From an uncultured bacterium (GTDB lineage Bacteria; Zhuqueibacterota; QNDG01; DSAB01), in assembly GCA_964617625.1 (NCBI GenBank), contig CAZTZL010000003.1:10130-74129 (forward strand): a DNA stretch of 64,000 nucleotides. The letters run 5' to 3'. This document shows, one piece after another, positions 1,718 to 59,690 of this stretch. The notes beneath the pieces were generated by a model. It searched no databases. It was not told where the DNA came from and was given only the letters and a program-made list of their open reading frames with translations. Position 1 is the first letter of the stretch; each line of letters begins with the position of its first letter. The translations under genes and the position numbers were made by a program.

Positions 1718-2890
1718 TTATTTTGAATAATTATACTGTAGCAGTATTTTTATAAGCTCATCATCCGGTTCAAGTGATTTCAACTGTTCAGAATCAAAAT
1801 GGTAAATGCCGAAATCACCTTTATACTCCCAATTGCACCATGCAATGTTATTTTCTTCAAGCCCTGAAATTAAATCCGAATAATATTGCATTCTGTCTTT
1901 TCTCTCAACCGTAGGTAAACAGCCAAATTCTCCACAATATAGTTGCAGGTTTTTAACTTTGGCAAATTCGATACCTGATCGAAATACGTCTATCAATCTC
2001 TCTTTATTAAAATTTTCTCTTGCATCAGATAGCAGATCCACCATTGCTGTGTCTGTGACATCCACATATTTCTCATAGTCATCATCCGTAATAATCTGAC
2101 CTGGATAATGAACCGGCCCCTTATAGTTACCCACCGGCGTCCAGTTTGCTGTATGGTGTGTAAAAGCCAGGGGAGTATATGTGTGAAAACTCAAAATGAT
2201 ATTTTTGTCGTTTTCAGGTAATTTTAAGTATTGAAGGTTCGGTGCTACTTGCCACATATTCGGCCCGATAACCAACACCCTTTCAGGTTCTTTTTCACGA
2301 ACAGCTGCTATTGCCTTATTTACAAGTTTATTCCAATCGTCATGTTCAGGGGCTACCGCTTCATTTAACAGTTCATAGGCAACCATATTATTGGGATACG
2401 TATGGAGCACTTCAGATAGTTGAATCCAAAGATTTACAAAATTCTTTTGCGCTTCAGCATCTGTCCAAAGTGTATTGATTCCGCCTTCATTTTCAGCGTT
2501 AAAATGATGTGAACGGATCGTATGCAAATCAACGACTGCCCTTAGGTTATATTGATTACACCAATCCAGACAACTTGTCAGATGATTAAATGCTTCCTGA
2601 ATTTGTTTTCCATTTTCATCCCACATTTCATGTTCATCAATAGGAATCCTTACATGGTCATATCCGATACTTTCTATAAATTGAATGTCTTTTTCCTGTA
2701 TATATTCATATTTAGGTTCCCACCCAAAATCCTGTGACAACCAATGGCTAAGATTGACGCCTCTCATTATTTCAAAACCAGAAGGATTCATTGCTTGTAT
2801 TGAAGCTGATTGTTTACAAGAAATTATTGTACCCAAGCTAACAATAACGAATAATAGTACTATTCTCCTGAAACTTTGTCTAATTATCAT
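1718..2890 (-). CDS. GH5 family endoglucanase/xyloglucanase-like glycoside hydrolase, secreted (lipoprotein-like signal)
   Basis: 390 aa. Signal peptide ending ...LGTIISCKQ. GH5 acid/base motif ELLNEA and nucleophile motif LYCGEFGC, with TIM-barrel spacing. Confidence 0.75.
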   Translation of the reverse strand: MIIRQSFRRIVLLFVIVSLGTIISCKQSASIQAMNPSGFEIMRGVNLSHWLSQDFGWEPKYEYIQEKDIQFIESIGYDHVRIPIDEHEMWDENGKQIQEAFNHLTSCLDWCNQYNLRAVVDLHTIRSHHFNAENEGGINTLWTDAEAQKNFVNLWIQLSEVLHTYPNNMVAYELLNEAVAPEHDDWNKLVNKAIAAVREKEPERVLVIGPNMWQVAPNLQYLKLPENDKNIILSFHTYTPLAFTHHTANWTPVGNYKGPVHYPGQIITDDDYEKYVDVTDTAMVDLLSDARENFNKERLIDVFRSGIEFAKVKNLQLYCGEFGCLPTVERKDRMQYYSDLISGLEENNIAWCNWEYKGDFGIYHFDSEQLKSLEPDDELIKILLQYNYSK

Positions 2891-24848: not shown

Positions 24849-24867
24849 AAATACTCCAAAATTGGTT

Positions 24868-26799
24868 TTATTTGTCTGGTACCATGAGAATACCAACAAA
24901 TCCACCTCTCGGCAGGCAATCGATTTTCAAAGTATCACCTTTTTTAACTTTTACCAAATCGCATGAAAAAGATTTATCATCACTTCCGTCTTTAATAAGC
25001 TTCAGAGAACAATTTTCTTTACCAAGAAAATTAAAATTTACATATAATGTTTGAGCTTCATTTTTTCCATTTAAGCCACCAATATACCATTTTTTTCCCT
25101 TTACCCGAGCGATAATCACTTTTTCCCCGGGATAACCATCGAGCAGTTTTGTATCATCCCAACAGACTGGAACATGTTTTAAAAATTCTTTAGGTTCGGA
25201 AGGTAAAGAATGATAGACCGAGGGTCTATCGGCAAAATGTTGAAACCCGGATTCAAAAACAACCGATAAAGCCAATTCGTGACCATAGGATGTAATATGC
25301 GGGTGCTGTGAATTCGAAAACGTAACCGGTGTGTAATCCATTGAACCAATCACATTGCGGGTAAAAGGGAGGGTCGTGTTGTGACCGGCGGCTTTGTTTG
25401 TCAGCGTGGATCGATTGTTGTACCATTCGGCACCATAGACGGCTTCCATCGTCATTAAATTAGGATACGTTCTTGCCCAACCGCGCGGAATCGTTGCGCC
25501 GTGAAAGTTGACCATCAAATGATATTTTGCCGCATCTTTAAGGATATCGATATAATATTTCATCATATCCTGCTGGTCGCCGGCAAAGAAATCCACTTTA
25601 ATCCCGTATACGCCGATTTTATTGAGCCACTCAAATTCCTTGGCACGTTTTTCTGCTGTTAACATATTTTTATTTGTTGTGGGAGTAGACCAGCTTGAAC
25701 ATGAGTTATACCAAATCATCGGTTTGATTCCTTTGCTCTTCGCATAATTAACGGCATCAATAATATTTCCGCCGTTAGTCATCTCTTCCCATTCCCAATC
25801 AATCAGCACATAGGGCCAGTTCATTTCCACGGCCAGATCCACATATTCGACAACCTTTTGATAATCTTTCGAGCCGTGATTGTTCGCCCAGTAAATCCAC
25901 GAAACCGGTCCCGGTTTAATCCAGTCTGTATCTTTCAATTGGTTAGGCTCGCTGACATCCGTAATGAGTGTAGATTCAACAATATCGGATAACTGCCCGA
26001 TGATGAGCACATGCCATTGCGAATGCCAGGGCAGTTTGGCGACAACTCCCGTTTGCGGGAAATGATCTCTCGGGGATGGATAGGTGACCTGATATTGATT
26101 TAAATCATTCAGATTGCTCAATAGGGAAGCACAATTATTTTCCGTAATATTGGCTTCGGAAATCAAGACCCATAATAGTTGATCATTTACTTTGAATAAC
26201 GCGGGAAATCCCCATTCTTGTTTTTGATTATTGCCTGTTCCTGTTTTAGTAAACGGAAAGAATTTTTCATAACCGAAGTCGTACGGCTGCATCCACCGGC
26301 AGGTGCTATCCGGCAACACATAGGTTGTTGCTTCACTGGTCACATTGACCAATGAATCGGAATGATTCGGGAAGACATACCGGAATGTAACACCGTTATT
26401 GTAAACTCTGAAAACAATATCCAGAGGTTGATTGTTGGCATTCTTATAACTGAAAACTTTTTCTGTCCCTATGTTTTCACAAAGCTTCCGTTTACCGTGA
26501 ATCATTTTATATTTATTGTGTATCGCTTTCACTTTTGACTCTTTAACAAGAATAAGGTTATCGACAAATTGCTGATCTGAACGAGAGATACCCAATGGTG
26601 AATTGGGCAGCACTTCGACAAATTCCGAATCTTCTTTGTACAAGATTTTAAAATATAACTGACAATAATTATTATCAACGGATGAATTTATATTAGTCAG
26701 TTCTACTTTAATATGCTTATTTGGCGAAATAATATCCTCTGCATTTGCCGCGATACAATTTAAAACAAAAACTATAATTAAAATACAAAATTGTTTCAT
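24868..26799 (-). CDS. GH97 alpha-glucosidase/alpha-galactosidase
   Basis: 643 aa. GIKVDFFAGDQQDMMKYY...KYHLMVNFHGATIPRGWARTYPNLMTMEAVYGAEW matches the GH97 catalytic-core signature. Signal peptide. Confidence 0.8.
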   Translation of the reverse strand: MKQFCILIIVFVLNCIAANAEDIISPNKHIKVELTNINSSVDNNYCQLYFKILYKEDSEFVEVLPNSPLGISRSDQQFVDNLILVKESKVKAIHNKYKMIHGKRKLCENIGTEKVFSYKNANNQPLDIVFRVYNNGVTFRYVFPNHSDSLVNVTSEATTYVLPDSTCRWMQPYDFGYEKFFPFTKTGTGNNQKQEWGFPALFKVNDQLLWVLISEANITENNCASLLSNLNDLNQYQVTYPSPRDHFPQTGVVAKLPWHSQWHVLIIGQLSDIVESTLITDVSEPNQLKDTDWIKPGPVSWIYWANNHGSKDYQKVVEYVDLAVEMNWPYVLIDWEWEEMTNGGNIIDAVNYAKSKGIKPMIWYNSCSSWSTPTTNKNMLTAEKRAKEFEWLNKIGVYGIKVDFFAGDQQDMMKYYIDILKDAAKYHLMVNFHGATIPRGWARTYPNLMTMEAVYGAEWYNNRSTLTNKAAGHNTTLPFTRNVIGSMDYTPVTFSNSQHPHITSYGHELALSVVFESGFQHFADRPSVYHSLPSEPKEFLKHVPVCWDDTKLLDGYPGEKVIIARVKGKKWYIGGLNGKNEAQTLYVNFNFLGKENCSLKLIKDGSDDKSFSCDLVKVKKGDTLKIDCLPRGGFVGILMVPDK

Positions 26800-27187: not shown

Positions 27188-29602
27188 TCATTTCACTTCC
27201 ACAAAAACCATCTTGTCAAGGTTTAGTCCACCACCTTCTATAACCAATTTTAGTATATGCTGACCGGCGTCAAGTTTAATAATCTTTTTTACAACATCCC
27301 ATGATTGAAACCCTGCTGTATTTGGAAGTGATATAATCCCGGTTTTATTTACTCCGTCACATTCAAGATGAAGTTTTGAATTATCTGAAGTTGAGGCCAC
27401 ATAGAATGAAACCTGGTAATTTGACGACTTTCTTATTGTGACCGTATATGCCATCCATTCGCCTGTAAATGTCCAGCCAACATTGTAACTGCCGGCGGAA
27501 CATTTTTCAATATCCACACCTTCACTGAGACGATATTGACCGCCCGAATTCTCCATGCCTCTATCATAATATGCATCGCCGGGGCAGCCGATGTCGTAGT
27601 CTTCGGCTTCGATGGTTCCCGGAATCGTATGGGATTTAAAAGCTTTCTGTTTCAACTCACAGACTTCCATAAACTGCCATCTTAAAAATGAACCACTTTT
27701 GGAATTGAGCAATTCGGCTTTATTCCCCTCAGCCAAGGGAACATTGACGGATAACATCCTATCGGGATATTGTTTATTGGAAATTTTAAATAACCCGTTG
27801 CGGGCATCATCGATTTTCCAAAACTGATTGGCCTTTCCGCTAAAATCTGAAATCACAAGATCATGATCTTGAATTGCGCACTCAAGCACTTTTTTAGAAT
27901 TTGCACGGTTCAGAATTGCATAAACGCCTTTCCCGGCGGATTTCAACTTCCATTGGTTGGCCGGATTTTTTCTTTGACTGCTCAGTCCCAAATCCGAACC
28001 AAGCATCAAGTTACCTGTGTTCTTTTCCGGAACAATGTAATAAGCAGGCGTGCAGTCGAAATCAGCATAATTGTCAAACGGCGGAATGTTGCCGTTGAAA
28101 CTCAGTTTTAAAACATAGGCCAGTTCTTCCAAAGAGCATTCGGGTAAACGCACGATTAATCCTTTTTCATTTTGTTTGTATGTCAATGGCAGGTATATCC
28201 CGGCTTCGCCATTGATGAGTTCAACCGATTTCAGGTTTTTACAGTTGATTCTTCTGGAGGACAATGATTTGAGCATAACTTCTTTCTGGTCCTTTTCCCA
28301 ACCGAGCAAAATTGCGTAAAGTGTCGTGTTATCTTTCGATCGGGTATAGCGAACATCTTTCGCCGTACCTTCGCTTGGAGCTCCCATTACACCGTGCGCA
28401 CCTCCCATTTTGGTGGGACCTTCTCCGTATTTTTCCCAGGCACGGGTTGCATACACCGCTTCGCCATATTTTTTAAGCCATGCACCCATGGCAAGCAGAA
28501 CATCCTTTTGTTCCTGTGGTATTGACCCATCTGCTTTTGGAGAAATGTTGAGAAGTAAATTACCGTTCTTGCTGATTCTGTCGAGAAACCCGTGAAGGAT
28601 CTGTTTCTTGGAATAATATCCGATTCCCTCGGTGTAGCACCAGCTTGAGGAACTGATGGCATCATCGGTCAGCCAGTAATTATCAGTGATATCGGCGGGA
28701 CCTCCGCGTTCGTAGTCCAAAACAGCGCATTTTGTATTCAGACCGTCTTTAAAAGTTGCTACAACAGGTTTGTTCCATTCGGCTGCTTTATTATAATAGT
28801 AAGCCAAAAATTGTAAAAGAATAGGTTGTGAAATAACATGCAGGTTGAAATCCTGCCAAACAATATCGGGCTTATAGTTGTCGATAATTTCCTTGTGCTT
28901 GGCAAGCCAAAACGCTTCATTTTTTTCTTTTCCCTGCTGACCGAAAAGCATTTGAAGTTTTGGATCGTTTGTTTGAGGCACAACATCATAATATCCGGTG
29001 ATATTGTATGCATGGTGCATAGAAAGGATGATTTTCATATTCTTTTTGCGGATGGCATCCGTTAACAGACCGACCAAATCCAGTCTCGGCCCCATATCTT
29101 TTGCGTTCCAGGGATTTACTTTGCTTGCCCACATCGAAAAACCATCATGGTGCTCGGCTACCGGGCCAGCAAATTGTGCTCCCGCATCGGCAAACAACTG
29201 TGCCCATTCATCAGGATCGAATTTACCTCCTTCCGACTTTAGCTTAGGTGCAAACTGTACAAAGTTACCTTTATTATCTTTCGCACCGGTGATGAAATAG
29301 TTGTACGGCCATTGAGATGGATCGCCGTAAGTTTCAATATGATGTTTATTTTCTGCCGATCCTTTGATATACATACTGCGGGGATACCATTCGTTTGCAA
29401 ATGCTGGAACAGAATATACTCCCCAGTGAAAATAAATACCAAACTTGGCGTCCTTGAACCACTCGGGGACTGGGTTTCCTTTTTCCAATGATTCAAATTC
29501 GGGTTGATATTCTTGTTTTTCTGTTTGTGCCGAGATTTTACCAATTATTCCAGTAACAAACAGAATCAGAAAGACAGCAATTAAAAACATTTTTGTTTTC
29601 AT
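27188..29602 (-). CDS. GH29 alpha-L-fucosidase with C-terminal CBM13 (ricin-B) and CBM6-like domains
   Basis: 804 aa. GKFGIYFHWGVYSVPAFANEWYPRSMY is the GH29 N-terminus. QxW repeats (QWKL, QFWKI, LRWQF) mark the CBM13. IEAEDYDIGCPGDAYYDRG...GW...GEW marks the CBM6. Confidence 0.85.
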   Translation of the reverse strand: MKTKMFLIAVFLILFVTGIIGKISAQTEKQEYQPEFESLEKGNPVPEWFKDAKFGIYFHWGVYSVPAFANEWYPRSMYIKGSAENKHHIETYGDPSQWPYNYFITGAKDNKGNFVQFAPKLKSEGGKFDPDEWAQLFADAGAQFAGPVAEHHDGFSMWASKVNPWNAKDMGPRLDLVGLLTDAIRKKNMKIILSMHHAYNITGYYDVVPQTNDPKLQMLFGQQGKEKNEAFWLAKHKEIIDNYKPDIVWQDFNLHVISQPILLQFLAYYYNKAAEWNKPVVATFKDGLNTKCAVLDYERGGPADITDNYWLTDDAISSSSWCYTEGIGYYSKKQILHGFLDRISKNGNLLLNISPKADGSIPQEQKDVLLAMGAWLKKYGEAVYATRAWEKYGEGPTKMGGAHGVMGAPSEGTAKDVRYTRSKDNTTLYAILLGWEKDQKEVMLKSLSSRRINCKNLKSVELINGEAGIYLPLTYKQNEKGLIVRLPECSLEELAYVLKLSFNGNIPPFDNYADFDCTPAYYIVPEKNTGNLMLGSDLGLSSQRKNPANQWKLKSAGKGVYAILNRANSKKVLECAIQDHDLVISDFSGKANQFWKIDDARNGLFKISNKQYPDRMLSVNVPLAEGNKAELLNSKSGSFLRWQFMEVCELKQKAFKSHTIPGTIEAEDYDIGCPGDAYYDRGMENSGGQYRLSEGVDIEKCSAGSYNVGWTFTGEWMAYTVTIRKSSNYQVSFYVASTSDNSKLHLECDGVNKTGIISLPNTAGFQSWDVVKKIIKLDAGQHILKLVIEGGGLNLDKMVFVEVK

Positions 29603-30053: not shown

Positions 30054-30431
30054 CTAATCTTCGAGTTTGTAAATTCGTTCCATCAATTGCCATTTTTCAT
30101 TCGCGGTATCGTTTGAAGATGCTTTTTGAAACCTTGCTACCCAGGTTTCCCATTCGCTCTGGCGGGGTTTTTGAGCAAGCTCGGCCATGGCCTGTTCATG
30201 ATCGAAATTCGGAACTGTGTCCATGATCATAAACAACCGGTTCTGGTATAAATAGATTTCCATATCGAGGATCCCAACTTCTCGCATCCCTCGTGTAATT
30301 TCAGGCCAGGCCGATCCGGGAGCGTGAACCTTTTTATATTCTTCGATCAGATTCGGGTCGTTAACCAGTTCCAAGGTCTTGCAATAGCGTTTTACTTTGT
30401 TTGCAGGAAATTCAACTATATATTCGCGCAT
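30054..30431 (-). CDS. L-rhamnose mutarotase family (RhaM/DUF718-like) sugar mutarotase
   Basis: 125 aa. EEYKKVHAPGSAWPEITRGMREVGILDMEIYLYQNRLFMIMDT parallels the E. coli RhaM core (H...WPE...IY...LF). Confidence 0.6.
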   Translation of the reverse strand: MREYIVEFPANKVKRYCKTLELVNDPNLIEEYKKVHAPGSAWPEITRGMREVGILDMEIYLYQNRLFMIMDTVPNFDHEQAMAELAQKPRQSEWETWVARFQKASSNDTANEKWQLMERIYKLED

Positions 30432-30500
30432 ATTTAAATCCTTTAAAGAAATACTTTTTCATTTGACTTGAGATGGTTTTTTTATAGAACTCAAGGCTGA

Positions 30501-31646
30501 TTAGATTTTGATTCGTATTTGTAAGGCTTCCGGGATCGAGTCTTCCGAAGCGACAACGATATATCCACCTCCGCTCCCGGAAAATATTGCGCCTGGATAG
30601 GAAGCGTACCTTTCTAATTGCTCAAGTGATTCGTCCAAAACAGTCATCGGCAGAAGATGTTTCCAGGCTTCCAAACTCAGTGTGAGTGATCGCCCCAAAC
30701 CCATGACATCTTTGTTTCGGATACTCTGCCAGCACAATTCACCAGACTCAGCCAGTTTTTTGACCCATTCAACTGTCAGGTTTTTGTTCCGGATTGGATC
30801 GTACTGTGTCGGTCTGGACTGAATGGGAATCAAATGAATCACTTTTTCAAGCCATTCGGCCGTCTCTCTGTCTGTGAGAGAGTCAATCCGGCTTGGCCAG
30901 TAATCTCCTTCGTAAAACAACCGGTTAATTCCCGGCAGGAGTAAACCGAGATGATCCTGAGAACCCGAAACGTACCGTGCGCCTGGTGGATTCTCCGCTC
31001 CGAAAAGCAATTTGGCATTGCGTACCGGATCGCCCTTCGGTATCCTGTCCCCCCAAAGTTCCTGGGCCACCTTCCTTGAGCTGGTAGCCATTCCCGATCT
31101 TTCATGAAAATCAATGTTCGGCTTGATCTGCGCCACGATAACGGGTCCGGGATGTAGTTCGGATACCCAGGGCTGATCCAGCCACCCTCCTGCAAGACAG
31201 ATGCGGTACGGCAACCGCAGGTTTTTTTTAATTTCCGAACTCGCCCGTGCAGTCAAACCGCTTTCAGGAACGCGGTCGAGCACAATGTAATCCACGCCAT
31301 TTTCCTTGCAGAGCTTATCTTTTCCTTCAGTGTGACCATCAGAATTGACAATGAAAACCTCCGGCCGTAAACGAACCAAATCTGGTTTAAAATCAAGAAT
31401 GCCGCTGCCAGAACTCAAGAACGCCTGATGAACATAACGAATGGCGTTTACCATGTAGAGACGTTCTTCCTGAGAAAAGGTTGGCGTTTTCCCTTTCAGG
31501 TGTCTGATATTTTGATCACTGCCGACTGCGACATACAATTCTCCATAACCAGACGCTTCTTTAAAAAACGCGACATGCCCCGCATGCAGCAAATCAAAAC
31601 ATCCGCTAACGAGAACCTTTTTTCTCTTTGATATGGATTTCCCCAT
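30501..31646 (-). CDS. bifunctional cytidylyltransferase-like nucleotidyltransferase / GHMP-family anomeric sugar kinase
   Basis: The N-terminal domain reads KKVLVSGCFDLLHAGHVAFFKEA, the (H/T)xGH motif of the PF01467 CTP-transferase-like family (TagD / HldE domain II type). The C-terminal domain carries LPYRICLAGGWLD, ERSGMATSS (GHMP motif II-like) and SGSGGGYIVV (GHMP motif III). The start at Met29 (ATG 31646..31644) overlaps the TGA of the upstream epimerase by 1 nt. Confidence 0.6.
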   Translation of the reverse strand: MGKSISKRKKVLVSGCFDLLHAGHVAFFKEASGYGELYVAVGSDQNIRHLKGKTPTFSQEERLYMVNAIRYVHQAFLSSGSGILDFKPDLVRLRPEVFIVNSDGHTEGKDKLCKENGVDYIVLDRVPESGLTARASSEIKKNLRLPYRICLAGGWLDQPWVSELHPGPVIVAQIKPNIDFHERSGMATSSRKVAQELWGDRIPKGDPVRNAKLLFGAENPPGARYVSGSQDHLGLLLPGINRLFYEGDYWPSRIDSLTDRETAEWLEKVIHLIPIQSRPTQYDPIRNKNLTVEWVKKLAESGELCWQSIRNKDVMGLGRSLTLSLEAWKHLLPMTVLDESLEQLERYASYPGAIFSGSGGGYIVVASEDSIPEALQIRIKI

Positions 31647-32626
31647 CACGCCTGCTTTGCGGTCATCCGCGAGTAAATCCAATTGTACGTTTGTTTCATC
31701 CCTTCTCTCAAAGAAATGGAAGGCTCCCAATTCAAATACTCTTTAATCAGGGCATTGTCGCTGTTTCGGCCGCGAACGCCTTTGGGTGCGTCGAGGTCGT
31801 ACTTCCGCTGCAGTTTGATTCCGGCAATGTTTTCAACGATATCTGTCAAGGCGTTGATGGACACCATTTCACTTGAACCCAGATTGATCGGTTCCTCGAT
31901 CCGGCTGGTCATGATGTCGAAGATTCCCTTGATGCAATCATCGATGTACATAAAACTGCGGGTCTGTAAACCGTCTCCCCAGATCACAATTTCATGTTTG
32001 CCAGACAGTTGGGCTTCGATGACTTTACGACATATAGCCGCGGGTGCTTTCTCCCGACCGCCTTCGTACGTACCGAATGGTCCGTACACATTGTGAAACC
32101 GGGCGACGCGGGTGGTCAATCCATAATCCTCCCTGAAATGCCGGCACATCCGCTCGCTAAACAGTTTCTCCCAACCATAACCGTCTTCGGCCAGAGCAGG
32201 ATAGGCGTCGGATTCTTTCAGGCCGGGATTGTCCGGATCGGTCTGTTTCTCGCCGTTATACACACATGCGGAGGACGAATAAAAATACCGGTCCACGCCC
32301 ATGTCCTTCGCGGCCATGAGAAGATGGGTATTGATCAGCACACTGATCATGCATGCCGCTTTGTGGGTTTCAATAAATCCCATACCGCCCATGTCTGCGG
32401 CCAGATTGTAGACTTCGTTGAATCCTTTGACCGCTTGGTAGCAGTTCTCTTTCTCTCGAAGATCGAGAACCAAATTCTCCGTATCCGGAAATACCTGGTA
32501 CCATTCGTTTAATGGTTTGATGTCTACCGCACGGATGAGATGATTCTTTTTCTTACTCAAGGCGGAGACCAGATGCCCCCCAATAAATCCCCCTGCTCCG
32601 GCAACAACGACTTTATTCATTTCCAT
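31646..32626 (-). CDS. GDP-mannose 3,5-epimerase-like SDR (NDP-sugar epimerase)
   Basis: 326 aa. VVAGAGGFIGGHL is the Rossmann motif. NLAADMGGMGFI, FYSSSACVYN, GYGWEKL, FHNVYGPFGTYEGGREKAPAA, WGDGLQTRSF and GVRGRNSDN are near-identical to plant GME blocks as I recall them. Confidence 0.7.
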   Translation of the reverse strand: MEMNKVVVAGAGGFIGGHLVSALSKKKNHLIRAVDIKPLNEWYQVFPDTENLVLDLREKENCYQAVKGFNEVYNLAADMGGMGFIETHKAACMISVLINTHLLMAAKDMGVDRYFYSSSACVYNGEKQTDPDNPGLKESDAYPALAEDGYGWEKLFSERMCRHFREDYGLTTRVARFHNVYGPFGTYEGGREKAPAAICRKVIEAQLSGKHEIVIWGDGLQTRSFMYIDDCIKGIFDIMTSRIEEPINLGSSEMVSINALTDIVENIAGIKLQRKYDLDAPKGVRGRNSDNALIKEYLNWEPSISLREGMKQTYNWIYSRMTAKQA

Positions 32627-32872: not shown

Positions 32873-34618
32873 TTAATCTCCCAGCCAGGCGGAAAGGTTT
32901 TGCGAGGGAATCAGGATTCTGGTAATGTCAGGTCCATCCCACGCAACAGATACGTTATCGCCTCCACCGCCTTCTTTGTGAAGTACTTCAATATAGTATA
33001 ATTTTCCGGCTTCCAGTTCAAAATCGGTGGAATGTTGAGATGGATACTCATCGTAGGACCGGTTTCCGGTCCAAATGTCCACCCTTGCAATTTCTGCTTT
33101 CGATTCCGGGTTTTCGTTCATACTGAGCAACAACTGGGAGGCATCATCACTGGCGATCCAGAATGAATAGGTGCCGCTGACGTCCGGACGGACAAATCCC
33201 CTCAGACGCGATCCATAATTTTCACCGAAATTTTGCGGTCCCTCCATTTGACTAAGGTACTGCCTCCCACTCGGGAAATCTGGAAATCTCGGATCTAAAG
33301 TTAAACTGCCTATTGTCGTTCCATTCATGTTGTTCCACCACTCCCGGAGAATGTGCCCGTCGTAGGATTGGACGGTTTGGACCAGAACAGTATCCGCAAA
33401 ACCATTGGCGGTGTCTTTCACGATCAAAAGCGTATTGCCTTCGGCTCCCGCGAGAAGAGTGGCCTCGGAAAAACCAGCTTCGAGCGGCTCCACAGTCATG
33501 ATTTCCGGATCTGCGGAAAACCACTCGTACATCGGAGTGGTGTTTCCACTCTGGGAGTAAGCCCTCACTATTCGCGGTACATTTACGCCGGCAATCAGGG
33601 AGTCGACTCCTTCTGGCTCAGCCGATGTCCAATTAACAGCTATTCCCGTTTCCAAATCTTCGAATTGGCTTGCATCGAACGAGTTTTTCATCGTGGAGCC
33701 TGTCCCATTATAAGCATTGGCGGAAATGGACATTTCAACTTGCTGCGTTCCCGTTCCTCTCAGCGAAGACTGATAGGAAATCCAATAAAAACTATCCGCA
33801 AATTTGGTGATGGATGTCTGGGTTTGGGTGAAGGCTTCGACAAGTTGGTTTGTATCGGAAACAATGAGAAATCCGCGGGTTCCGATCTGATTCAGAAAAT
33901 CCCGATCCAGATCGCTGCCGAGACCGATGGTATAGACGTTCGCAAATTGTGAGGTATATATGACCTCTTCTTTGCTCTTTTCGTTTTCAGTGTCATCCCC
34001 GGCTGTAAAAACCACCAAATTCCCCTGTTGAAAGACTCCCAGGTTGTAAACTTCACTGTATAGATTAAATCCCCGCGATATAGCCCCGTACAGATTTCTC
34101 TCTGCTGAACCCGTTGTTATCCCATCAATCGCACTGATCAACTGAGTGGAATTCTGAGTAAAATCTTGTACCATATTTAATGTGCCTGAAAAAACATAAA
34201 CCGCAATTGACTGCATCGAAGCAATACCGTTTATAAAAGCCCGGACGGCTTCTTTTAAAACGTCCAGGTTAATTCCCGCGCTGACGTCCAACAACAGGAT
34301 CGTGTTCAAATTATAGTCGAACGTATTCTGTTTTCGGACAAACAAGGCCGCCTCGTCCGGATCTATGGACGTTCCGTTTTCCTTGATTGAAAAGCGGTCA
34401 ACGGTTAAAAAATCCACTGCCGTTCTGGAAGTGTCAACCACGTTGAAGAACAGGTGCACTTCATGCGGAGGGGAGGTCACCACACCGTGCGGCAGGATGA
34501 TGTACTCGCCCACATCGATAGCATGATTCTGGTCTTCGGGTCCGACCGTATCGCTCTTGTTACATTGGATGAAGCAAAAGGTTGCGATGACCAGCACGAA
34601 AAGAATTACATTCCTCAT
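32873..34618 (-). CDS. lipoprotein with vWA-like domain and C-terminal PA14 domain
   Basis: 581 aa. Signal peptide and lipobox IQCN. ILLLDVSAG region is MIDAS-like. C-terminal GENYGSRLRGFVRPDVSGTYSFWIASDDASQLLLSMNE...YYIEVLHKEGGGGD is a PA14 signature. Confidence 0.5.
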   Translation of the reverse strand: MRNVILFVLVIATFCFIQCNKSDTVGPEDQNHAIDVGEYIILPHGVVTSPPHEVHLFFNVVDTSRTAVDFLTVDRFSIKENGTSIDPDEAALFVRKQNTFDYNLNTILLLDVSAGINLDVLKEAVRAFINGIASMQSIAVYVFSGTLNMVQDFTQNSTQLISAIDGITTGSAERNLYGAISRGFNLYSEVYNLGVFQQGNLVVFTAGDDTENEKSKEEVIYTSQFANVYTIGLGSDLDRDFLNQIGTRGFLIVSDTNQLVEAFTQTQTSITKFADSFYWISYQSSLRGTGTQQVEMSISANAYNGTGSTMKNSFDASQFEDLETGIAVNWTSAEPEGVDSLIAGVNVPRIVRAYSQSGNTTPMYEWFSADPEIMTVEPLEAGFSEATLLAGAEGNTLLIVKDTANGFADTVLVQTVQSYDGHILREWWNNMNGTTIGSLTLDPRFPDFPSGRQYLSQMEGPQNFGENYGSRLRGFVRPDVSGTYSFWIASDDASQLLLSMNENPESKAEIARVDIWTGNRSYDEYPSQHSTDFELEAGKLYYIEVLHKEGGGGDNVSVAWDGPDITRILIPSQNLSAWLGD

Positions 34619-34659: not shown

Positions 34660-35721
34660 CTAAAACGTCATGCCGGCGGTGAACATGGAATAATTCCCCA
34701 GGAGACCTATCGTTTTATAGGCGTAATCCAACTTTAATTCCTTGTTGTTCATCAAGGCCCAGTGAATGCCTCCGCCGAAGGTCCATCCATATTCCGAGCT
34801 GTCCATGAAGAGACCGTGATAGCCGGCTCTTAAGAAGAATTTAGCCATTCCCGGTAGACTCAACCGGTATTCTCCGCCCAAGTTGATCGATTCGCTGTTG
34901 TTATTGGGATGAAGTGCATCCATAGCGAAGCACAATTGATGATTGAGAGTTTTTATTGGAATCACCGACACACCGATTCTGAAGATCAGGGGAAGTTCCC
35001 AGGACTGAAGTCGGAATTGACCCTCAACATCTTTAAAGTTGCCGCTTTCTTCAGGAGAAATATCGATGGGCTGCAGAAGGTCCATCCCGTCGTATTTCAT
35101 TCGGGTACCGTAGTTGGAAATGCTCATGCCGATGGAAAGGCCGTTTTCCCGGTTTCCGTCCGGAGAAAAGAAAGTGGTATTGACCATGACCCCCAGATCC
35201 AGAGCCGCCGCGCTTGCTTTCATATGCCAGATACTGGAATTAATGTATTTGAAAGAAATACCAAATCCAAACCATTGAGCCAGTTTCCGGGCGTATGAAA
35301 GACTCGCTGCGATGTCCATCGCCGAATAGGATTCACCCGTTCCCTCCTGCATTTCCATGGTCGTTACAGGGGTGTTTCCGTAATTCAAGGCTGTGTAAGA
35401 GAGGGCAATCGTCCCATAATTGGGCAAAACCACAGCCACACCTCCATGACTGAAATTGATGTCGATAATCCAGGATTGATAGACGAACTGGACTTCATTA
35501 AGGGTTAAATAAGAAAGTCCTGCCGGATTCCAATACACGGACGAAAGATCCCGCGCGACACTGACATAGGCTTCGCCCATGGCACATCCGGCACTTTCGG
35601 CACCAATTTCAAGAAAATTGGCGGTCGTTGTTCCCACACGATAGGGTTTGGACTGTGCCCAAACTTGAACGCTGCACAACAACCCCGTGGTGAGCAATAG
35701 TGCAAATCGTTTTTTGTTCAT
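34660..35721 (-). CDS. porV: PorV-like (FadL-fold) T9SS outer-membrane beta-barrel shuttle protein
   Basis: 353 aa. Signal peptide. N-terminal TTANFLEIGAESAGCAMGEAYVSVARDLSSVYWNPAGL is the pattern conserved in PorV/LptO proteins. Ends in aromatic residues typical of beta-barrel OMPs. Sits directly downstream of a large protein bearing a T9SS C-terminal domain. Confidence 0.55.
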   Translation of the reverse strand: MNKKRFALLLTTGLLCSVQVWAQSKPYRVGTTTANFLEIGAESAGCAMGEAYVSVARDLSSVYWNPAGLSYLTLNEVQFVYQSWIIDINFSHGGVAVVLPNYGTIALSYTALNYGNTPVTTMEMQEGTGESYSAMDIAASLSYARKLAQWFGFGISFKYINSSIWHMKASAAALDLGVMVNTTFFSPDGNRENGLSIGMSISNYGTRMKYDGMDLLQPIDISPEESGNFKDVEGQFRLQSWELPLIFRIGVSVIPIKTLNHQLCFAMDALHPNNNSESINLGGEYRLSLPGMAKFFLRAGYHGLFMDSSEYGWTFGGGIHWALMNNKELKLDYAYKTIGLLGNYSMFTAGMTF

Positions 35722-35767: not shown

Positions 35768-38700
35768 TTACTTTATAACCGCAAATTTACCGATTTTTTC
35801 ATCCCCGGTTGCGTTGGATTTGACATGGAAAATGTACATCCCGGCCGCGATTTCAAGTCCCTCGCGGGATAACAAATTCCAGTGGACGATTCCATTGGAT
35901 GGTTCGTTGGCCACGTCGATTTTGTCGACCAATACGCCCGATGGGGTAAAAATACGGATCACACAGTTGGCCGGAATATGCGTGAAAAGGAGCCTCCGGC
36001 CCTGGTTCAAATATGGATTAGCCACTGCCGTCTCCATCAAGTTGGTTGCAATATATGGATTAGGCACTACTTTGATTGAATCCATTGACATTTTTAGTTT
36101 TGATTTGTCCATATCCTTCGCCGGATTGATTGTAAAGACCAAAGAATCCGATTCCGCAAGCGGTTTATGAAAAGATATTCGATAGGTATCACCCATTGTT
36201 GTCGGATTGCTGTTGCTCCCAGTTTGGATGAAATCGAAACCAAAGATCGTCCCGCTCCACCAGAACTTGTCGTCAACCTGATTGACATAACCTACAAGGA
36301 ATCGATCCGTATCCCAGTCAAGTGAACCATTTTCATTGACATCATACAAAACACAATCCAATTTTTCATAGTTGTTCAAACTGTCCTTGATTAAATTATT
36401 AATGATATAAAACGGATACTTCAGCCCCAATACACTATTCGTGGTTTTTACCAGGGTACCATCCACATCATAAATGCTGGTGTGCCTATTGGTTAGCGAC
36501 TGATATTCCTGGCTGGGATCGAATACAATTTCGTATTGATAAGCAAAATATTGTGCCGCAGGACCCAATTGAAAATTGATGGGTGCCTCTCCCTGAATCC
36601 AACCAGTATGATCCAGATCCAATTCGACGGAATCAGAAGGAATCGAGACATTGCATTGGAGTCCCTGAAAAACATCGGTAGTGATATTGCGGTTGGCTGG
36701 ATATTCCCAGACTTCTTTATCGGTACTGTATTGTAAATTGTTATCCGGGAAACCACTCTCGGCATTCTCTACATAAACACGCTGGCTTGTTTGTGTAATA
36801 TCATAAACCTCAATGCCGGATGTCACCCGTTTTCCGTCTCTAATGGATCTTCTTGCCTGCGTTCGTTCATAAAATTCCATTGGAGTGCTTTGAAACGTCA
36901 ATTTATAAGTGTGACCCTTCTCAGCTGCACTCGGATCGATAATTGCGGGGATGACCTGACCGTTCGCCAGTCGTTCCGACGAACGTCCTGTATCGATATC
37001 AATTTCAGGTGGCACATAACCCGCTGCCATTTGTCTTGGCATCACAATCTGGATGTTTTGTCCCAAGAAAGTAATGTTTTCCGATTCGTCCTGATAGATA
37101 TGTACCGTGTTTTCGGCCGGGGCAATATCGAGGTCTTCGACGCCATAATCATAGGCGACCAGTGCGTAATAATAAGTTCTGCCGTTTTGAACGTCAGTAT
37201 CCTCGAAATAATGCCGGATTCCCGTGTCGTCGCCCAGATACACGAGATGACCTTCCCGCTCTCCTCCGAAACTGCAGTAACCTGTAATTGTATCGATTTT
37301 ATCACATTGAAAAAGCGGCGCGCGGAATTTCTTGGCCCCTTGCCCGTCGGTAATGGTTATAGGATCGGATATAAATTTATCCGTTGATTTATACAATTTA
37401 TATCCTTCAAAATCATTGATATTCTGCAGAAGGGGTTCACGGGTTTTTGTATCGGCGGCGTCATCCCAGGTGAGGGTGACTTTCCCATCCCCCGGAATGG
37501 CGGACAAGGTTGGCATCACAGGAGGCTGGGCGAACTGGTAATCGCGCTCATAGATAATCTGGGCCACCTCTTTGAGCCGGAACAGATTCGGCGCCCGGTG
37601 TTCCGAGGCGTTGAGCACAGCAAGGTTTTCATACGCACACATGAACGCCATCGACACCCTTTCGGTATGGCCCTTATAAAACTCAAAAGGCGAAGAGGCA
37701 AAAATCATGTATATCGATCCTACGGATCCTGCGATGAGAAATTCGGACAGCGAATCGGAATTCATCACATTCCATACATTTTTGTCTTCATCGATCGTTA
37801 AATTCAAGGTGTTCTGCCACTCTGCCCAATCGAACAACAGAAAGCTGGTCAGCCCGACCATGTCCGATTCGCCGACGTCCTGCGGCCCGAAATTGGGTTC
37901 ACCTTTGGTAGCAATGAAATCCGGTTTGTGGTTGCACTCGGTTCCATCAAGATCCGGGCCATAGTAGTTTAAATCGCCTGGTCCGACACCGTCAATGCCA
38001 ACATCATCACCCACAAATGCTCCGGATTCAAGAATCCAGATCCCATGGTCATCCTGATCGGCGTATTGTCCATCATTGTCCGGATCAATTCCGTCCTGCC
38101 AATCCTGATCCTCATCACCCTCCCAATGTTCTTTGGGCTCACGGTGATAGAAATTGCTAAATTTGTACGTATCGATGAGTTTCCCGTCAACCCCGACATT
38201 GGGACCAACCCATTCACCTGCTGGATTATCTCGCCTTTCATCAATGATACCATCGTCGTCATCATCAATCCCGTTATAGGCTTTGCCCGGGCTTTCCAGA
38301 TAGGCGTACCCCATGGTTCCCGGCATGCGTCCGCCTTCCCCTTGGCCCATCTGTTCCCAGACATAGCACAGATCGAGTACTTTATCGCGATAACCGACCT
38401 CATTTTCCCCGCTGGCATCGCCTCCGATACTGTTATCGATGTAATATCCGAAACCGCTTAACGGCAAGTTATAATCGGAGACATTGGAGATATTGTACTC
38501 CCAGAAAACAATGTCCTGGGCCTCAATATTGGACCACTGGTATCCCCGCACTTCAATACGGAGACCGAGACCGCCCCACGGTAACCCCTTTTGGATAGTA
38601 ACATTGGGATCAAAATCTCCGATGACTCTTCCAGGCCTGGGATGGTAGCGGGGCCCGTCGGTGATGAGTTTTTCTTCCGGGTCATTGCGCTGGATGATAT

Positions 38701-42189: not shown

Positions 42190-42215
42190 TAATAACTTAC
42201 TCGAGTAAGTTATTA
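42190..42215. promoter_or_regulatory. 26-bp perfect palindrome TAATAACTTACTCGAGTAAGTTATTA; candidate LacI-family operator upstream of the TonB receptor gene
   Basis: Read directly from the sequence. Exact dyad symmetry with a central CG, as in LacI/GalR-type operators. It lies about 40 bp upstream of the TonB receptor start codon and immediately downstream of the LacI gene. Confidence 0.5.
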
Positions 42216-42234: not shown

Positions 42235-43263
42235 CTAATTTATCGCAACATGTTCGGGTATTCGAATCGATTCTCCGATTTCGATTTCAGCTGGAATAAA
42301 TATTTTTTGTTCGTGCATATCCTCCCCCTTGATCCGTTGAAGCATTATTTCCATAGCTTTTTTACCGAGATTATACGGATTCACATTGATAATTGTCATT
42401 GAAGGTGTAATAATCTTGGCAAATTCATGGTGTCCAAATGCAACCACACCGATCTTTTCTGGAAATAAAATGCCTAATTCCTTCATGGCGTCATAAGCAC
42501 CCAGCGCATTTTGATCGTTTGCCGAGAAAACAACTTCAGGCATTGAATCAGTCTGATAGAGCTTCATGAAACAACGATAGCCATCCGTTCGTGTGAATCC
42601 TCCTTCTATGATCCATTCTTCCCGAACGGGAATTTGATGTCTCTTTAAGGAATCAAGATATCCATCACGCCGGTTTCGTCCGATATCTGTCAGAAGGCTT
42701 CCTCCCAAATGAGCAATACGTTGATACCCGCAGCGCACGACAAAATCGATCAATCTTCGTGCGGCGCCCCTGTCATCAATGCCAACCGAACTGAATCCTG
42801 AATAATCCACAGCGCGGTCAAAGAAAACCAGAGGTATATTTGAACGCTTGATTTTATCAAATATCTGGGTGTCCTTCGTTTCCCTTGAAACAGCCAGTAG
42901 AATCCCATCTACCCTCATGGACAACAATGTTAAAATATTATCTTTCTCGGTATCGGCTTTTTCTCTTGAAACCGTAAGAATAATATGATACCCCGACAGC
43001 CTGGCGATATCCATGATGCCATCGATCACAAATGAGAAAAATGAGTTTGATACATCCGGGACGATAACGCCGATTGTTTTTGTTTCTTGGAAATGCAGTC
43101 TTCTTGCGTGATAATGGGGGATATAATTCATTTCTTCGGCCATATCCCACACACGCTTTTTCATCTCTACGGAAATATCATCCGCATCCTTCAGTGCCTT
43201 CGAAACCGTGGCTCGACTAACGTTTAATTTTTTTGCAATGGCGGATTGATTGATAATTGACAT
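42235..43263 (-). CDS. LacI-family transcriptional regulator
   Basis: 342 aa. N-terminal HTH IAKKLNVSRATVSKAL. Periplasmic-binding-protein-like sugar-binding core. Confidence 0.85.
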   Translation of the reverse strand: MSIINQSAIAKKLNVSRATVSKALKDADDISVEMKKRVWDMAEEMNYIPHYHARRLHFQETKTIGVIVPDVSNSFFSFVIDGIMDIARLSGYHIILTVSREKADTEKDNILTLLSMRVDGILLAVSRETKDTQIFDKIKRSNIPLVFFDRAVDYSGFSSVGIDDRGAARRLIDFVVRCGYQRIAHLGGSLLTDIGRNRRDGYLDSLKRHQIPVREEWIIEGGFTRTDGYRCFMKLYQTDSMPEVVFSANDQNALGAYDAMKELGILFPEKIGVVAFGHHEFAKIITPSMTIINVNPYNLGKKAMEIMLQRIKGEDMHEQKIFIPAEIEIGESIRIPEHVAIN

Positions 43264-43283
43264 TTACTTACTCGTGTAAGTTA
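43264..43283. promoter_or_regulatory. degenerate copy of the operator-like palindrome (TTACTTACTCGTGTAAGTTA) abutting the LacI start codon
   Basis: Same ACTTACTCG / -GTAAGT half-sites with 2 mismatches. Consistent with autoregulation. Confidence 0.4.
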
Positions 43284-43514: not shown

Positions 43515-43811
43515 TATGTGGCGCCTCCCAGTGCGCGAAGCCGATCGAGGACCGATCAGTCATGATCGGTTCGAAGATCAATCGAACGACCAGTTCGATT
43601 CTGGCATTAAATACCAATGGTACAATAATAAAACCCGCAGTCTTAAAAATCCTACGGGCTTATTGGTGGCGCCTCCCAGTGCGCGAAGCCGATCGAGGAC
43701 CGATCAGTCATGATCGGTTCGAAGATCAATCGAACGACCAGTTCGATTCTGGCATTAAATACCAATGGTACAATAATAAAACCCGCAGTCTTAAAAATCC
43801 TACGGGCTTAT
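43515..43811. repeat. two tandem direct repeats (period about 148 bp), each beginning with a copy of the 3' acceptor/T-arm end of the adjacent tRNA-Phe; a further degenerate junction copy at about 43381-43395
   Basis: The unit runs from tggtggcgcctcccag through gcgcgaagccgatcgaggaccgatcagtcatgatcggttcgaagatcaatcgaacgaccagttcgattctggcattaaataccaatggtacaataataaaacccgcagtcttaaaaatcctacgggc. It repeats at 43515 and 43661, then continues into the intact tRNA at 43811. gggcttattggtg recurs at 43383. Confidence 0.8.
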
Positions 43812-43887
<76 letters not shown>

Positions 43888-51817: not shown

Positions 51818-51880
51818 GCTCTTCTTTTATACTTTTTTCTATTTTTTCAGAAACATCCCGGCCTTTTCAATATAATCAAA

Positions 51881-52924: not shown

Positions 52925-52964
52925 CGGCAGCTCCCAATTTTAAATACATGTTTGATTAATAAAA

Positions 52965-59681: not shown

Positions 59682-59690
59682 TTTCCTCTC

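Follow-up and report, generated by a model that had tools for sequence, protein, structure and literature searches.

D-Galactose enters central metabolism by the Leloir/Isselbacher route, with GalM, GalK, GalT or a UDP-sugar pyrophosphorylase, and GalE. The bacterial catabolism known for L-galactose, a sugar found in complex arabinoxylans, RG-II, some xyloglucans, porphyran/agar precursors and animal galactans, is that of Bacteroides vulgatus (Bvu0219-0222) and of Luteolibacter LG18 (the lgu genes); it is oxidative and non-phosphorylative, leading from L-galactose through L-galactonolactone, L-galactonate and D-tagaturonate to KDG. GDP-L-galactose is known from the Smirnoff-Wheeler pathway (GMP/VTC1, GME), in which plants consume it through the HIT-family phosphorylase VTC2, and activation of free L-sugars from Fkp/FKGP (Bacteroides fragilis; plants), a protein of ~950 aa that carries a GlmU/RmlA-type NTP_transferase pyrophosphorylase with a beta-helix. 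HldE (RfaE), finally, combines a sugar kinase of the PfkB/ribokinase type with a PF01467-fold domain for the nucleotidylation of a sugar-1-phosphate. Here we describe a gene set that resembles each of these in part, and that probably serves to turn L-galactose from plant and algal glycans into GDP-mannose by a LacI-controlled, cytoplasmic pathway of the Leloir/Isselbacher type.

The window, a stretch of 64,000 nucleotides from an uncultured bacterium, carries on its minus strand the genes for a GME-like epimerase, a fused nucleotidyltransferase/kinase, a mutarotase and a GH29 enzyme, in the layout given by a preliminary description made from the sequence alone (Table 1). The motifs named there all occur in the translations (NLAADMGGMGFI, FHNVYGPFGTYEGGREKAPAA, WGDGLQTRSF and GVRGRNSDN in the epimerase; LAGGWLD, SGMATSS and GSGGGY in the fused protein), and the 1-nt overlap of the epimerase stop with the fused-gene start is read as TGATG (TGA 31648-31646, ATG 31646-31644). 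The surroundings had been called a fucosidase-rich island with the module at its head, and neither part of that picture holds: a single GH29 stands among GH97, two GH3, two GH43, GH27, GH31, GH51, GH5 and esterases, and the same-strand genes upstream of the module encode LacI, a TonB-dependent receptor, a 1188-aa protein, a PorV-like protein and a VWA/PA14 protein, the receptor gene being the first of the minus-strand array. A terminator scan around the module gave no terminator-like sites in its intergenic gaps, and sigma-70 promoter-like matches there were near shuffle expectation, by a consensus that is not appropriate for this lineage.

Table 1. Positions of the genes, domains and candidate operators in the window.
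Feature	Position	Strand	Description
GME-like epimerase gene	32626..31646	-	326 aa; ORF list
Fused nucleotidyltransferase/kinase gene	31646..30501	-	381 aa from ATG; ORF list
N-terminal nucleotidyltransferase domain	31221..31625	-	residues ~8-142 of fused protein
C-terminal divergent short GHMP anomeric sugar kinase domain	30504..31220	-	residues ~143-381
RhaM-superfamily L-sugar mutarotase	30054..30431	-	125 aa; PF05336
GH29 alpha-L-fucosidase/alpha-L-galactosidase-type, exported, with RicinB (CBM13-like) and CBM6	27188..29602	-	804 aa; Pfam
LacI-family repressor	42235..43263	-	Pfam LacI and Peripla_BP domains
Candidate LacI operator AATAACTTACTCGAGTAAGTTATT	42191..42214	.	perfect 24-bp palindrome, before TonB-dependent receptor gene
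Second candidate operator copy ACTTACACGAGTAAGT	43266..43281	.	directly 5' of LacI start

Sequence comparison identifies the epimerase as a true GME: its catalytic residues are all kept, and the similarity is far beyond chance. It matches Arabidopsis GME (PDB 2c59) with E=2.8e-94 and 319 bits (48% identity over 312 aa), as against at most 93 bits and at best 1e-25 for other SDRs in the PDB; Pfam places it in PF01370/PF16363. The GxxGxxG NAD motif is GAGGFIG (residues 9-15), and the Ser/Tyr/Lys triad S119, Y150 and K154 aligns with S143, Y174 and K178 of the Arabidopsis enzyme. The C145, K217 and R306 of that enzyme align with identical residues here, C121, K193 and R287; the first two are the catalytic acid/base pair and the third is a conserved arginine (AtGME numbering; PMC6678494). 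The preliminary description had set the GME assignment against grouping with HldD or UDP-sugar epimerases, and GME is what the models favour: the scores were 63 bits for TIGR02197 (cut-off 275) and 68 for galE (cut-off 262), and the NCBIfam models of GalE, HldD, RmlB and Fcl were all far under their cut-offs. [quoted passage not shown] Activity on GDP-mannose is known for a bacterial GME that shares ~50% identity with its plant counterpart, and the GME equilibrium favours GDP-mannose, at 80:15:5 Man:L-Gal:L-Gul (PMC6678494). The earlier remark that GME is rare in bacteria is best softened. In 75 of 83 loci surveyed (see below) an epimerase homologue (72-89% identical) lies directly 5' of the fused gene, and a second, divergent GME lineage (47% identity to the window GME; E=8e-96 to AtGME) also pairs with the fused gene.

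The N-terminal domain of the fused protein belongs to PF01467, as first described, by its score (49 bits, cut-off 21; residues 13-124), its HxGH motif (H21-A-G-H24) and its Rossmann-like fold; an RxSS motif (R134/S136/S137) lies in a flexible loop. In structure comparison its fold is that of the sugar-1-phosphate adenylyltransferase HldC, and the arrangement recalls HldE in joining a nucleotidylating PF01467-fold domain to a sugar kinase. It differs from HldE in domain order, the nucleotidyltransferase here being N-terminal, in having a GHMP kinase, and in a context other than LPS biosynthesis. An NDP-heptose or LPS-core module, pairing an HldE/HddA-HddC-like kinase-nucleotidyltransferase with an HldD-like epimerase, had been given as equally possible. 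Among the Foldseek matches there are indeed two heptose kinases, 3k85 and WcbL, as well as the nucleotidyltransferase HldC, and rfaE domain II is the best NCBIfam match of the nucleotidyltransferase domain, yet the fused protein scores 52 against a cut-off of 181.5 with the HldE/RfaE equivalog TIGR02199 and 43 bits against 521 with PRK11316, and its neighbours are catabolic rather than LPS genes. Since the epimerase stands apart from HldD and the UDP-sugar epimerases, and the fused gene is no HldE/HddA-HddC variant from an LPS heptose operon, the heptose reading is by no means equal, and on model scores and gene context we reject it as extremely improbable. We know of no PF01467-fold member that uses GTP, which leaves some uncertainty about the nucleotide used by the fused enzyme.

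The C-terminal domain was described as a GHMP kinase of the fucokinase/HddA type. Its motifs are RICLAGGWLDQPW (R148, W155, D157), RSGMATSS (183-190), E218, SQD (229-231) and GSGGGY (357-362), of which RSGMATSS and GSGGGY recognisably resemble the GHMP motifs II (P-x-G-S-G-L-G-S-S-A) and III (G-x-G-G-G). Pfam does not see the domain, and structure prediction was needed to place it: the window protein has no GHMP_kinases_N match and reaches 14 bits with GHMP_kinases_C (cut-off 21), although two distant relatives (P0134 and P0146) exceed the GHMP cut-off, at 30.9 and 29.1 bits. In the predicted structure the domain has the two-domain GHMP fold, and its nearest structural relative is L-fucokinase (FKP). 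HMMER aligns the invariant R148, W155 and D157 with the sugar-binding R592, W599 and D601 of FKP, whose sugar-binding and catalytic residues are Arg592, Trp599, Asp601, Gln761 and Asp762 (PMC11982464); by motif spacing rather than residue-level alignment, S229-Q230-D231 would correspond to Q761-D762 and E218 to E751. FKP turns L-galactose into GDP-L-galactose, although it prefers L-fucose 100-fold (PMC11982464). That preference, the scores under the Pfam GHMP thresholds and a length ~85 residues less than that of the FKP kinase between motifs I and II are points against the L-galactose pathway proposed below. Compared with Fkp/FKGP as a whole, the fused protein is far smaller, with the shorter kinase joined to an unrelated HxGH cytidylyltransferase fold in a catabolic context (LacI, glycosidases, GME, ManC) and not in one of salvage for glycan synthesis; no NTP_transferase or hexapeptide domain was found in it, and its N-terminal domain is thus not of the Fkp type. 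The fused gene, at present annotated only as 'cytidyltransferase', occurs in ~560 species-level genomes (clustering its kinase domain at 50% identity gives 560 clusters). One member is a RhaM-nucleotidyltransferase-kinase triple fusion (P0138), and GMD-kinase and GT2-kinase fusions occur among distant relatives; the triple fusion and the GMD fusion count in favour of the pathway proposed below. The combination of domains is new, and so, perhaps, is the nucleotide specificity for this fold.

The third protein, first noted as a DUF718 mutarotase, is just that, DUF718 being the former name of PF05336 (rhaM; 93.7 bits, cut-off 23.4). Its best PDB match is the L-fucose mutarotase 7byu (E=4e-6), L-rhamnose mutarotases following at E>=0.018, and it does not pass the E. 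coli YiiL/RhaM equivalog model TIGR02625 (22 vs 99.6); in 14-20 loci a homologue is encoded close to the fused gene. The module would have the same order of activities as the Leloir/Isselbacher route, from mutarotase through GHMP anomeric kinase and nucleotide activation to an SDR epimerase yielding a central NDP-hexose, from which hexose-1-phosphate would then be released and the NTP recycled. The differences are that an L-sugar would be used, carried on GDP instead of UDP and epimerised at C3 and C5 instead of C4, that the mutarotase has the RhaM and not the GalM fold, and that a kinase-fused HxGH nucleotidyltransferase stands in place of HIT-family GalT. Pfam and NCBIfam models gave no GalT-type (HIT), GalE 4-epimerase or GalM-fold family in the module; the likeness is one of logic only.

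A survey of 83 fused-gene loci, from Bacteroidota, Ignavibacteriota, KSB1, Phycisphaerae and others (80 genomes, mostly MAGs and weighted to Bacteroidales), showed that the pair of GME and fused gene is conserved across phyla together with LacI (44 loci), GH29 (40), GH95 (11), FucP (19), ManC, the mannose-1-phosphate guanylyltransferase (19), and the mutarotase (14); the operon order LacI-GME-FUS-ManC-FucP-Mut-GH29 (FUS, fused gene) was seen. These neighbours bear on whether the fused enzyme could instead serve in salvage, making GDP-L-Fuc or GDP-L-Gal from recycled L-fucose and/or L-galactose for glycans that the cell itself builds, in the manner of Bacteroides Fkp, with GME balancing the GDP-Man and GDP-L-Gal pools and possibly running in the biosynthetic direction. 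Such a role would agree with the resemblance of the kinase to FKP, itself a salvage enzyme, with the GMD and GT2 fusions of distant family members, and with the LPS or antibiotic biosynthesis in which bacterial GMEs have so far been placed (PMC6678494, PMC8787198). It is at odds, however, with recurrent neighbours that are LacI repressors, exo-glycosidases, a sugar permease, mutarotase and ManC, the recurrent gene clusters of the 83 loci including no glycosyltransferase, Wzx/Wzy or other LPS gene; with a candidate sugar-responsive LacI operator before the operons; and with the tight coupling of a GME, which salvage of L-fucose alone would not need. We consider salvage unlikely.

A different sugar or nucleotide could also pass through the same steps: L-fucose to GDP-L-Fuc and on to GDP-6-deoxy-D-mannose, another L-hexose, or an ADP- or CDP-sugar handled by a GME homologue of altered nucleotide specificity. 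The L-fucose preferred by FKP (PMC11982464), a neighbour FucP that passes the L-fucose permease equivalog cut-off, a window GH29 of fucosidase-like type and the alpha-L-glucosidases also found within GH29 (PMC9774334) all lean that way for the sugar, as does the CTP or ATP typical of PF01467 enzymes for the nucleotide. GDP-D-rhamnose, the 3,5-epimerised form of GDP-L-fucose, would nevertheless have no known entry to central metabolism, presumably because it lacks a 6-OH to phosphorylate, and L-fucose isomerase (FucI) adjoins the module in some loci, so that L-fucose has a separate route there. The ManC that is co-operonic in 19 loci is specific for GDP-mannose, and the GME homologues, 48% identical to plant GME, have a complete active site; these points, and the activity of a bacterial GME on GDP-Man (PMC6678494), likewise argue against a change of sugar or nucleotide. 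This variant seems to us quite unlikely.

The window GH29 contains PF01120, RicinB (CBM13-like) and CBM_6 by Pfam, which agrees with the first description of a GH29 with CBM13 and CBM6, and has a signal-peptide-like N-terminus. Its best PDB matches are the fucosidases 9lxl/4ni3 (E=1e-164), followed by the exo-alpha-L-galactosidase BpGH29 (E=9e-96). The GH29 conserved as a neighbour of the module is nearest BpGH29 (1e-92 vs 1e-57 for the next family), and the O6-binding Asp is kept as WQTD in 33 of 46 neighbour GH29s. As a discriminator of L-galactosidases from fucosidases this residue (Asp327 of BpGH29) is uninformative for the window GH29, because it is kept in this fucosidase-like protein too, as WLTD. 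The closeness of the window GH29 to fucosidases rather than to BpGH29, and a window that holds no FucP, ManC or GH95, speak against the proposed L-galactose pathway.

The window LacI shares 45-63% identity with a cluster of LacI proteins encoded beside GME and the fused gene in 44 loci and is, by sequence, an orthologue of that module-linked repressor. Its candidate operator 16-mer has 5 strand-matches in the window where 0.6 would be expected, and in 10 further loci this motif lies 15-133 bp 5' of operons that begin with LacI, GME, GH27 or an esterase; a 16-mer identical to ACTTACACGAGTAAGT is found just 5' of LacI in loci L007 and L013. The copy at 43266..43281 is a candidate site of LacI autoregulation, and orthologous repressor and common candidate operator tie the window locus to the same regulon as the other loci. 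A looser operator pattern and the 10-base core TACNCGNGTA were each no commoner than chance would have it (17 found, 18 expected), and of these forms the extended palindrome alone is informative. Neighbourhood and operator are conserved, alongside the gene anatomy, the folds and the catalytic residues.

The proposed L-galactose pathway would begin outside the cytoplasm, where exported exo-glycosidases, of GH29 in this locus and of GH29 and/or GH95 in others, free L-galactose, probably together with L-fucose. Uptake would be by FucP in many genomes, and the RhaM-type mutarotase would supply the beta-L anomer, to be phosphorylated at O1 by the GHMP domain; the HxGH domain would then convert beta-L-Gal-1-P and GTP to GDP-beta-L-Gal and PPi. 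The translationally coupled GME, running in reverse of plant vitamin-C synthesis and in the equilibrium-favoured direction, would turn GDP-L-Gal into GDP-D-mannose, from which ManC, adjacent in 19 of the 83 loci and presumably encoded elsewhere in this genome, would regenerate GTP and release Man-1-P for glycolysis via ManB and ManA. The net reaction would be redox-neutral, L-Gal + ATP giving Man-1-P + ADP. We infer L-galactose as substrate, GTP as nucleotide, the way in which flux runs and what ManC does. ManC would be the counterpart of VTC1 in the Smirnoff-Wheeler pathway, with the difference that flux would be opposite and catabolic and that GDP-L-Gal would be made from free L-galactose by the kinase/nucleotidyltransferase. 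The pathway shares its nutrient and its link to glycan degradation with the known L-galactose routes, but is nucleotide-sugar-linked where they are oxidative. The preliminary description had outlined a chain from L-sugar through mutarotase, 1-kinase and NDP-sugar to 3,5-epimerase, as a catabolic or salvage feed into GDP-mannose, and the true GME, the L-fucokinase-like kinase, the HldC-fold nucleotidyltransferase and the conserved neighbours lend support to that putative function. Its claim of novelty agrees with the literature on L-galactose Leloir-like routes, L-galactokinase, GDP-L-Gal pyrophosphorylase, GME with fucosidases or PULs, and porphyran L-galactose catabolism, in which, among papers open to all readers, no description of the route was found.

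More broadly, we lean slightly towards the view that widespread anaerobic and sediment glycan degraders of the FCB and PVC groups catabolise L-galactose via GDP-L-Gal, with a hitherto unrecognised 381-aa bifunctional L-galactokinase/L-Gal-1-P guanylyltransferase in which a minimal GHMP kinase would be coupled to an HxGH domain that uses GTP, the first of its fold to do so; GME would act in reverse, and ManC would close the cycle. If so, the fused protein would define a new bifunctional enzyme family and offer a compact, one-enzyme biocatalyst for making GDP-L-galactose, a very expensive reagent (PMC6678494), directly from L-galactose, and the pair of GME and fused gene would be a marker for GH29 and GH95 enzymes that act as alpha-L-galactosidases. 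The assumption that bacterial GMEs serve LPS or antibiotic biosynthesis would be overturned, their primary role here being catabolic, as a counterpart of the plant vitamin-C enzyme. A third, redox-neutral and Leloir-like route for L-galactose would then stand beside the two known oxidative ones, and would account for the disposal of this sugar by anaerobic degraders of glycans.

[quoted passage not shown] The Arabidopsis GME structures are its match in the PDB (E=2.8e-94, 319 bits; other SDRs reach at most 93 bits), and it shares 48% identity with Arabidopsis GME (AtGME) over 312 aligned residues, with the S143/Y174/K178 triad, the C145/K217 acid/base pair and R306, the catalytic roles of which have been described (PMC6678494), all retained. 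The motifs from which the preliminary description had recognized the GME and its fused partner are all present in the translations and, rather than grouping with HldD or UDP-sugar epimerases, the protein falls far under the cut-offs of the NCBIfam models for GalE, HldD, RmlB and Fcl. The 1-nt overlap behind the proposed coupling of the two genes also stands, as the junction reads TGATG (epimerase TGA at 31648-31646, fused-gene ATG at 31646-31644). However, the four genes of the module region, which are consecutive on the minus strand, do not head a fucosidase-rich island as had been thought: the module lies in the middle of a 40-kb minus-strand array that runs from LacI and a TonB-dependent receptor to a GH5 and contains a single GH29, along with GH97, two GH3, two GH43, GH27, GH31, GH51 and three esterases, a gene set consistent with a locus for hemicellulose (xyloglucan or complex arabinoxylan). 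FucP, ManC and GH95 are absent from the window.

Positions of the features discussed, in window coordinates
Feature	Position	Strand	Remarks
SDR epimerase (GME)	32626..31646	-	326 aa; Pfam PF01370/PF16363
Two-domain fused protein	31646..30501	-	381 aa; Pfam PF01467
Small mutarotase	30431..30054	-	125 aa; Pfam PF05336 (rhaM, former DUF718)
Exported GH29	29602..27188	-	804 aa; Pfam PF01120 + RicinB + CBM6
LacI repressor	43263..42235	-	starts the 40-kb array
GH5	2890..1718	-	far end of the 40-kb array
Perfect 24-bp palindrome AATAACTTACTCGAGTAAGTTATT	42191-42214		candidate operator, between LacI and receptor gene
Second palindrome copy ACTTACACGAGTAAGT	43266-43281		candidate operator, just upstream of LacI
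Protein without Pfam domain	35768-39334	-	1188 aa
PorV-like outer-membrane protein	34660-35721	-	follows the 1188-aa protein
VWA/PA14 protein	32873-34618	-	follows the PorV-like protein
Array protein without Pfam match	19299-21560	-	753 aa
Array protein without Pfam match	17283-18026	-	247 aa
Array protein without Pfam match	24252-24905	-	217 aa
148-bp perfect tandem duplication	43518-43827 and 43812-43887		2.1 copies, 100% identical
V/A-type ATPase operon	51188-63898	-	subunits C/AC39, I, E, A, B, D
GlmU-like protein	47997-49016	+	339 aa
GNAT acetyltransferase	49258-50175	+	separate gene after the GlmU-like gene

Several other features of the window deserve mention. The 1188-aa protein, which is encoded after the TonB-dependent receptor and before the module, has a 1191-aa counterpart upstream of the module in surveyed loci L004-L007, and together with the PorV-like and VWA/PA14 proteins it may make up a system for glycan capture other than SusC/D in this lineage. 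The three array proteins without a Pfam match may be carbohydrate-active or accessory proteins that have yet to be described. The tandem duplication, situated in the gap before LacI, has three palindromes within it and runs into the 3' end of a minus-strand tRNA-Phe gene; it may be the scar of an integration site, a partly duplicated tRNA or an artefact of assembly. Farther away, the ATPase operon, which is followed by a universal stress protein gene, carries between its B and D genes a 1014-aa S8 subtilase with an FlgD-Ig-like C-terminus and a PrsW-family intramembrane protease. In the GlmU-like protein the match to the GlmU models (~450 positions) covers only positions 2-328, and the last part of the acetyltransferase domain is apparently missing.

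Public annotations describe the fused protein only as 'cytidyltransferase' or 'FAD synthase'. An AlphaFold2 model based on 39 homologues (mean pLDDT 86) predicts two domains with a disordered loop (residues 127-140) between them. The N-terminal domain (residues ~8-142) is a cytidylyltransferase-fold nucleotidyltransferase (PF01467, 49 bits) with an invariant HxGH (H21-H24) and an RxSS at R134/S136/S137. For the C-terminal domain (residues ~143-381) no above-threshold Pfam match was obtained with the window protein; its profile matches FKP, the Bacteroides bifunctional L-fucokinase/GDP-L-fucose pyrophosphorylase, at motifs I and III (E=0.022), and the invariant R148, W155 and D157 align to the sugar-binding residues R592, W599 and D601 of FKP (PMC11982464). 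Judging by spacing, RSGMATSS, E218 and S229-Q230-D231 would correspond to the glycine loop, E751 and Q761-D762 of FKP, and the stretch from motif I to motif II is ~85 residues shorter in this domain than in FKP. When 1.84 billion cluster representatives were scanned in full with HMMER, the kinase domain had only 560 relatives (336 at E<=1e-10), which argues for a compact, distinct family and not the fringe of the canonical GHMP kinases; its more distant members do pass the GHMP_kinases_C threshold. One relative (P0138) joins a RhaM mutarotase to the nucleotidyltransferase and kinase, and another (P0194) a GDP-mannose 4,6-dehydratase to the kinase. Among P0194, P0144 and P0146, the short GHMP domain is fused also to a GT2 glycosyltransferase and to a PNP_UDP-type phosphorylase plus nucleotidyltransferase, so that the family has biosynthetic or salvage offshoots beside its catabolic-looking core. 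The neighbouring mutarotase is a member of the RhaM superfamily (94 bits) that fails the YiiL equivalog model; it matches the solved L-fucose mutarotase 7byu (E=4e-6) better than L-rhamnose mutarotases (E>=0.018).

In a collection with one genome per species, the fused gene has at least 562 confirmed occurrences. We surveyed 83 loci (80 from the species-collection scan and three exact look-ups) from Bacteroidales/Marinilabiliales, Ignavibacteriota, KSB1, Phycisphaerae/Sedimentisphaerales, Verrucomicrobia and unclassified MAGs, a sample of mostly MAGs that is biased towards Bacteroidales; ORFs were called by a simple longest-ATG procedure, and neighbours within 7 kb were clustered and then assigned with Pfam/NCBIfam. 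Cultured carriers are to be had among Maribellus, Draconibacterium, Tangfeifania, Mariniphaga and Melioribacter relatives, the orthologue of Maribellus sp. YY47 lying at L068:10004-11140. In 75 of the loci a GME homologue, 72-89% identical to that of the window, lies directly upstream on the same strand, and several of the others are at contig ends. The pairing is not one transferred block, because on a Phycisphaerales chromosome the fused gene is paired with a second GME lineage (47% identical to the window GME, E=8e-96 to AtGME). A LacI repressor accompanies the fused gene in 44 loci, a GH29 in 40 (always downstream, same strand), a FucP permease in 19 (407 bits against an equivalog cut-off of 280), the mannose-1-phosphate guanylyltransferase ManC also in 19 (same strand, median 109 bp downstream), the mutarotase in 14, a GH95, a family that also contains alpha-L-galactosidases, in 11, and L-fucose isomerase (FucI) in three; the fullest operons read LacI-GME-FUS-ManC-FucP-Mut-GH29 (L060) and GME-FUS-GH29-FucP-Mut-ManC-LacI (L049), FUS being the fused gene. 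This regulator, glycosidase, permease and ManC context speaks against pure salvage for glycan synthesis, which we regard as unlikely. As no recurrent glycosyltransferase or LPS gene appears within 7 kb across the 83 loci, the gene context, like the model scores, contradicts a heptose/LPS module, which is highly improbable.

Two other observations concern the neighbourhood. In a Verrucomicrobia MAG (L082, 8851-12538) the fused gene has no GME neighbour and is flanked by a GFO/IDH/MocA oxidoreductase on one side and GH4 glycosidases on the other, which suggests that in some lineages the enzyme family feeds another downstream step. Around the module, Bacteroidales and Ignavibacteriota repeatedly carry exported xylose-isomerase-like TIM-barrel proteins, Amidohydro_2, GFO/IDH/MocA oxidoreductases, DUF6807 and GH27 (L001, L002, L023, L054, L073 and others).

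The LacI of the window is 45-63% identical to the LacI family flanking the module elsewhere, and the 16-mer of its candidate operators has five strand-matches in the window versus 0.6 expected. The extended motif TAC[ACT]CG[ATG]GTAAGT is found in 10 other loci, always intergenic and 15-133 bp upstream of a module-containing operon led by LacI, GME, GH27 or an esterase (~0.6 expected by chance, as estimated by scaling the number of 10-base core matches in shuffled sequence). Given the LacI orthology and the common candidate operator, the window locus probably belongs to a conserved, putatively sugar-responsive regulon.

The analysis establishes the gene anatomy, the folds, the catalytic residues, the conserved neighbourhood and the operator motif. 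Reading function from sequence, predicted structure and gene context, we infer the substrate, the use of GTP and the direction of flux, and the simplest interpretation is that L-galactose is used by a route of the Leloir/Isselbacher type. Retaining GH29 enzymes would free alpha-L-Gal, the mutarotase would give the beta anomer, which is the form used by fucokinase-type enzymes, the GHMP domain would form beta-L-Gal-1-P and the HxGH domain would convert it to GDP-beta-L-Gal. To our knowledge, GTP use would be unprecedented for the HxGH nucleotidyltransferase fold. GME would then produce GDP-Man, which the measured GME equilibrium of 80:15:5 favours (PMC6678494), and ManC, operating in the pyrophosphorolysis direction, would yield Man-1-P and regenerate GTP. 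Of the GH29 structures, the best match to the conserved neighbour GH29 is BpGH29 (E~1e-92 versus 1e-57 for the next ones), a characterized exo-alpha-L-galactosidase from a porphyran PUL (PMC9774334, PMC12316285), and the neighbour GH29 keeps the O6-binding Asp for L-galactose.

That the module handles a different sugar or nucleotide seems quite unlikely. L-fucose is the obvious rival substrate: the window's own GH29 has the fucosidases 9lxl/4ni3 as its best matches, FucP is present at many loci, and FKP prefers L-fucose (PMC11982464). Nevertheless, 3,5-epimerised GDP-L-fucose would be a dead end, with no known route into central metabolism, ManC is GDP-mannose specific, and FucI stands beside the module in some loci, all of which favours L-Gal over L-Fuc; L-Gal is thus probably the substrate that explains the coupling to GME, and L-Fuc may be a side substrate.

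In its logic the module resembles both the Leloir/Isselbacher pathway and Fkp, yet it belongs to neither. Its epimerase would carry out 3,5-epimerisation on a GDP-sugar; the pyrophosphorylase fold of Fkp differs from the module's nucleotidyltransferase, and HldE has the opposite domain arrangement and a different kinase fold. In reviews, the role given to bacterial GMEs is in the biosynthesis of LPS or antibiotics (PMC8787198, PMC6678494), and the known bacterial catabolism of L-galactose, in Bacteroides vulgatus and Luteolibacter LG18, is oxidative (PMC12632266). We found no paper on an L-galactokinase, a GDP-L-Gal pyrophosphorylase or GDP-linked L-Gal catabolism in full-text searches of a literature collection that covers few subscription journals, and an earlier description may exist elsewhere. 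The L-galactose route proposed here would cost one ATP and need no electron acceptor, and it would be suited to the anaerobic lineages that carry it.
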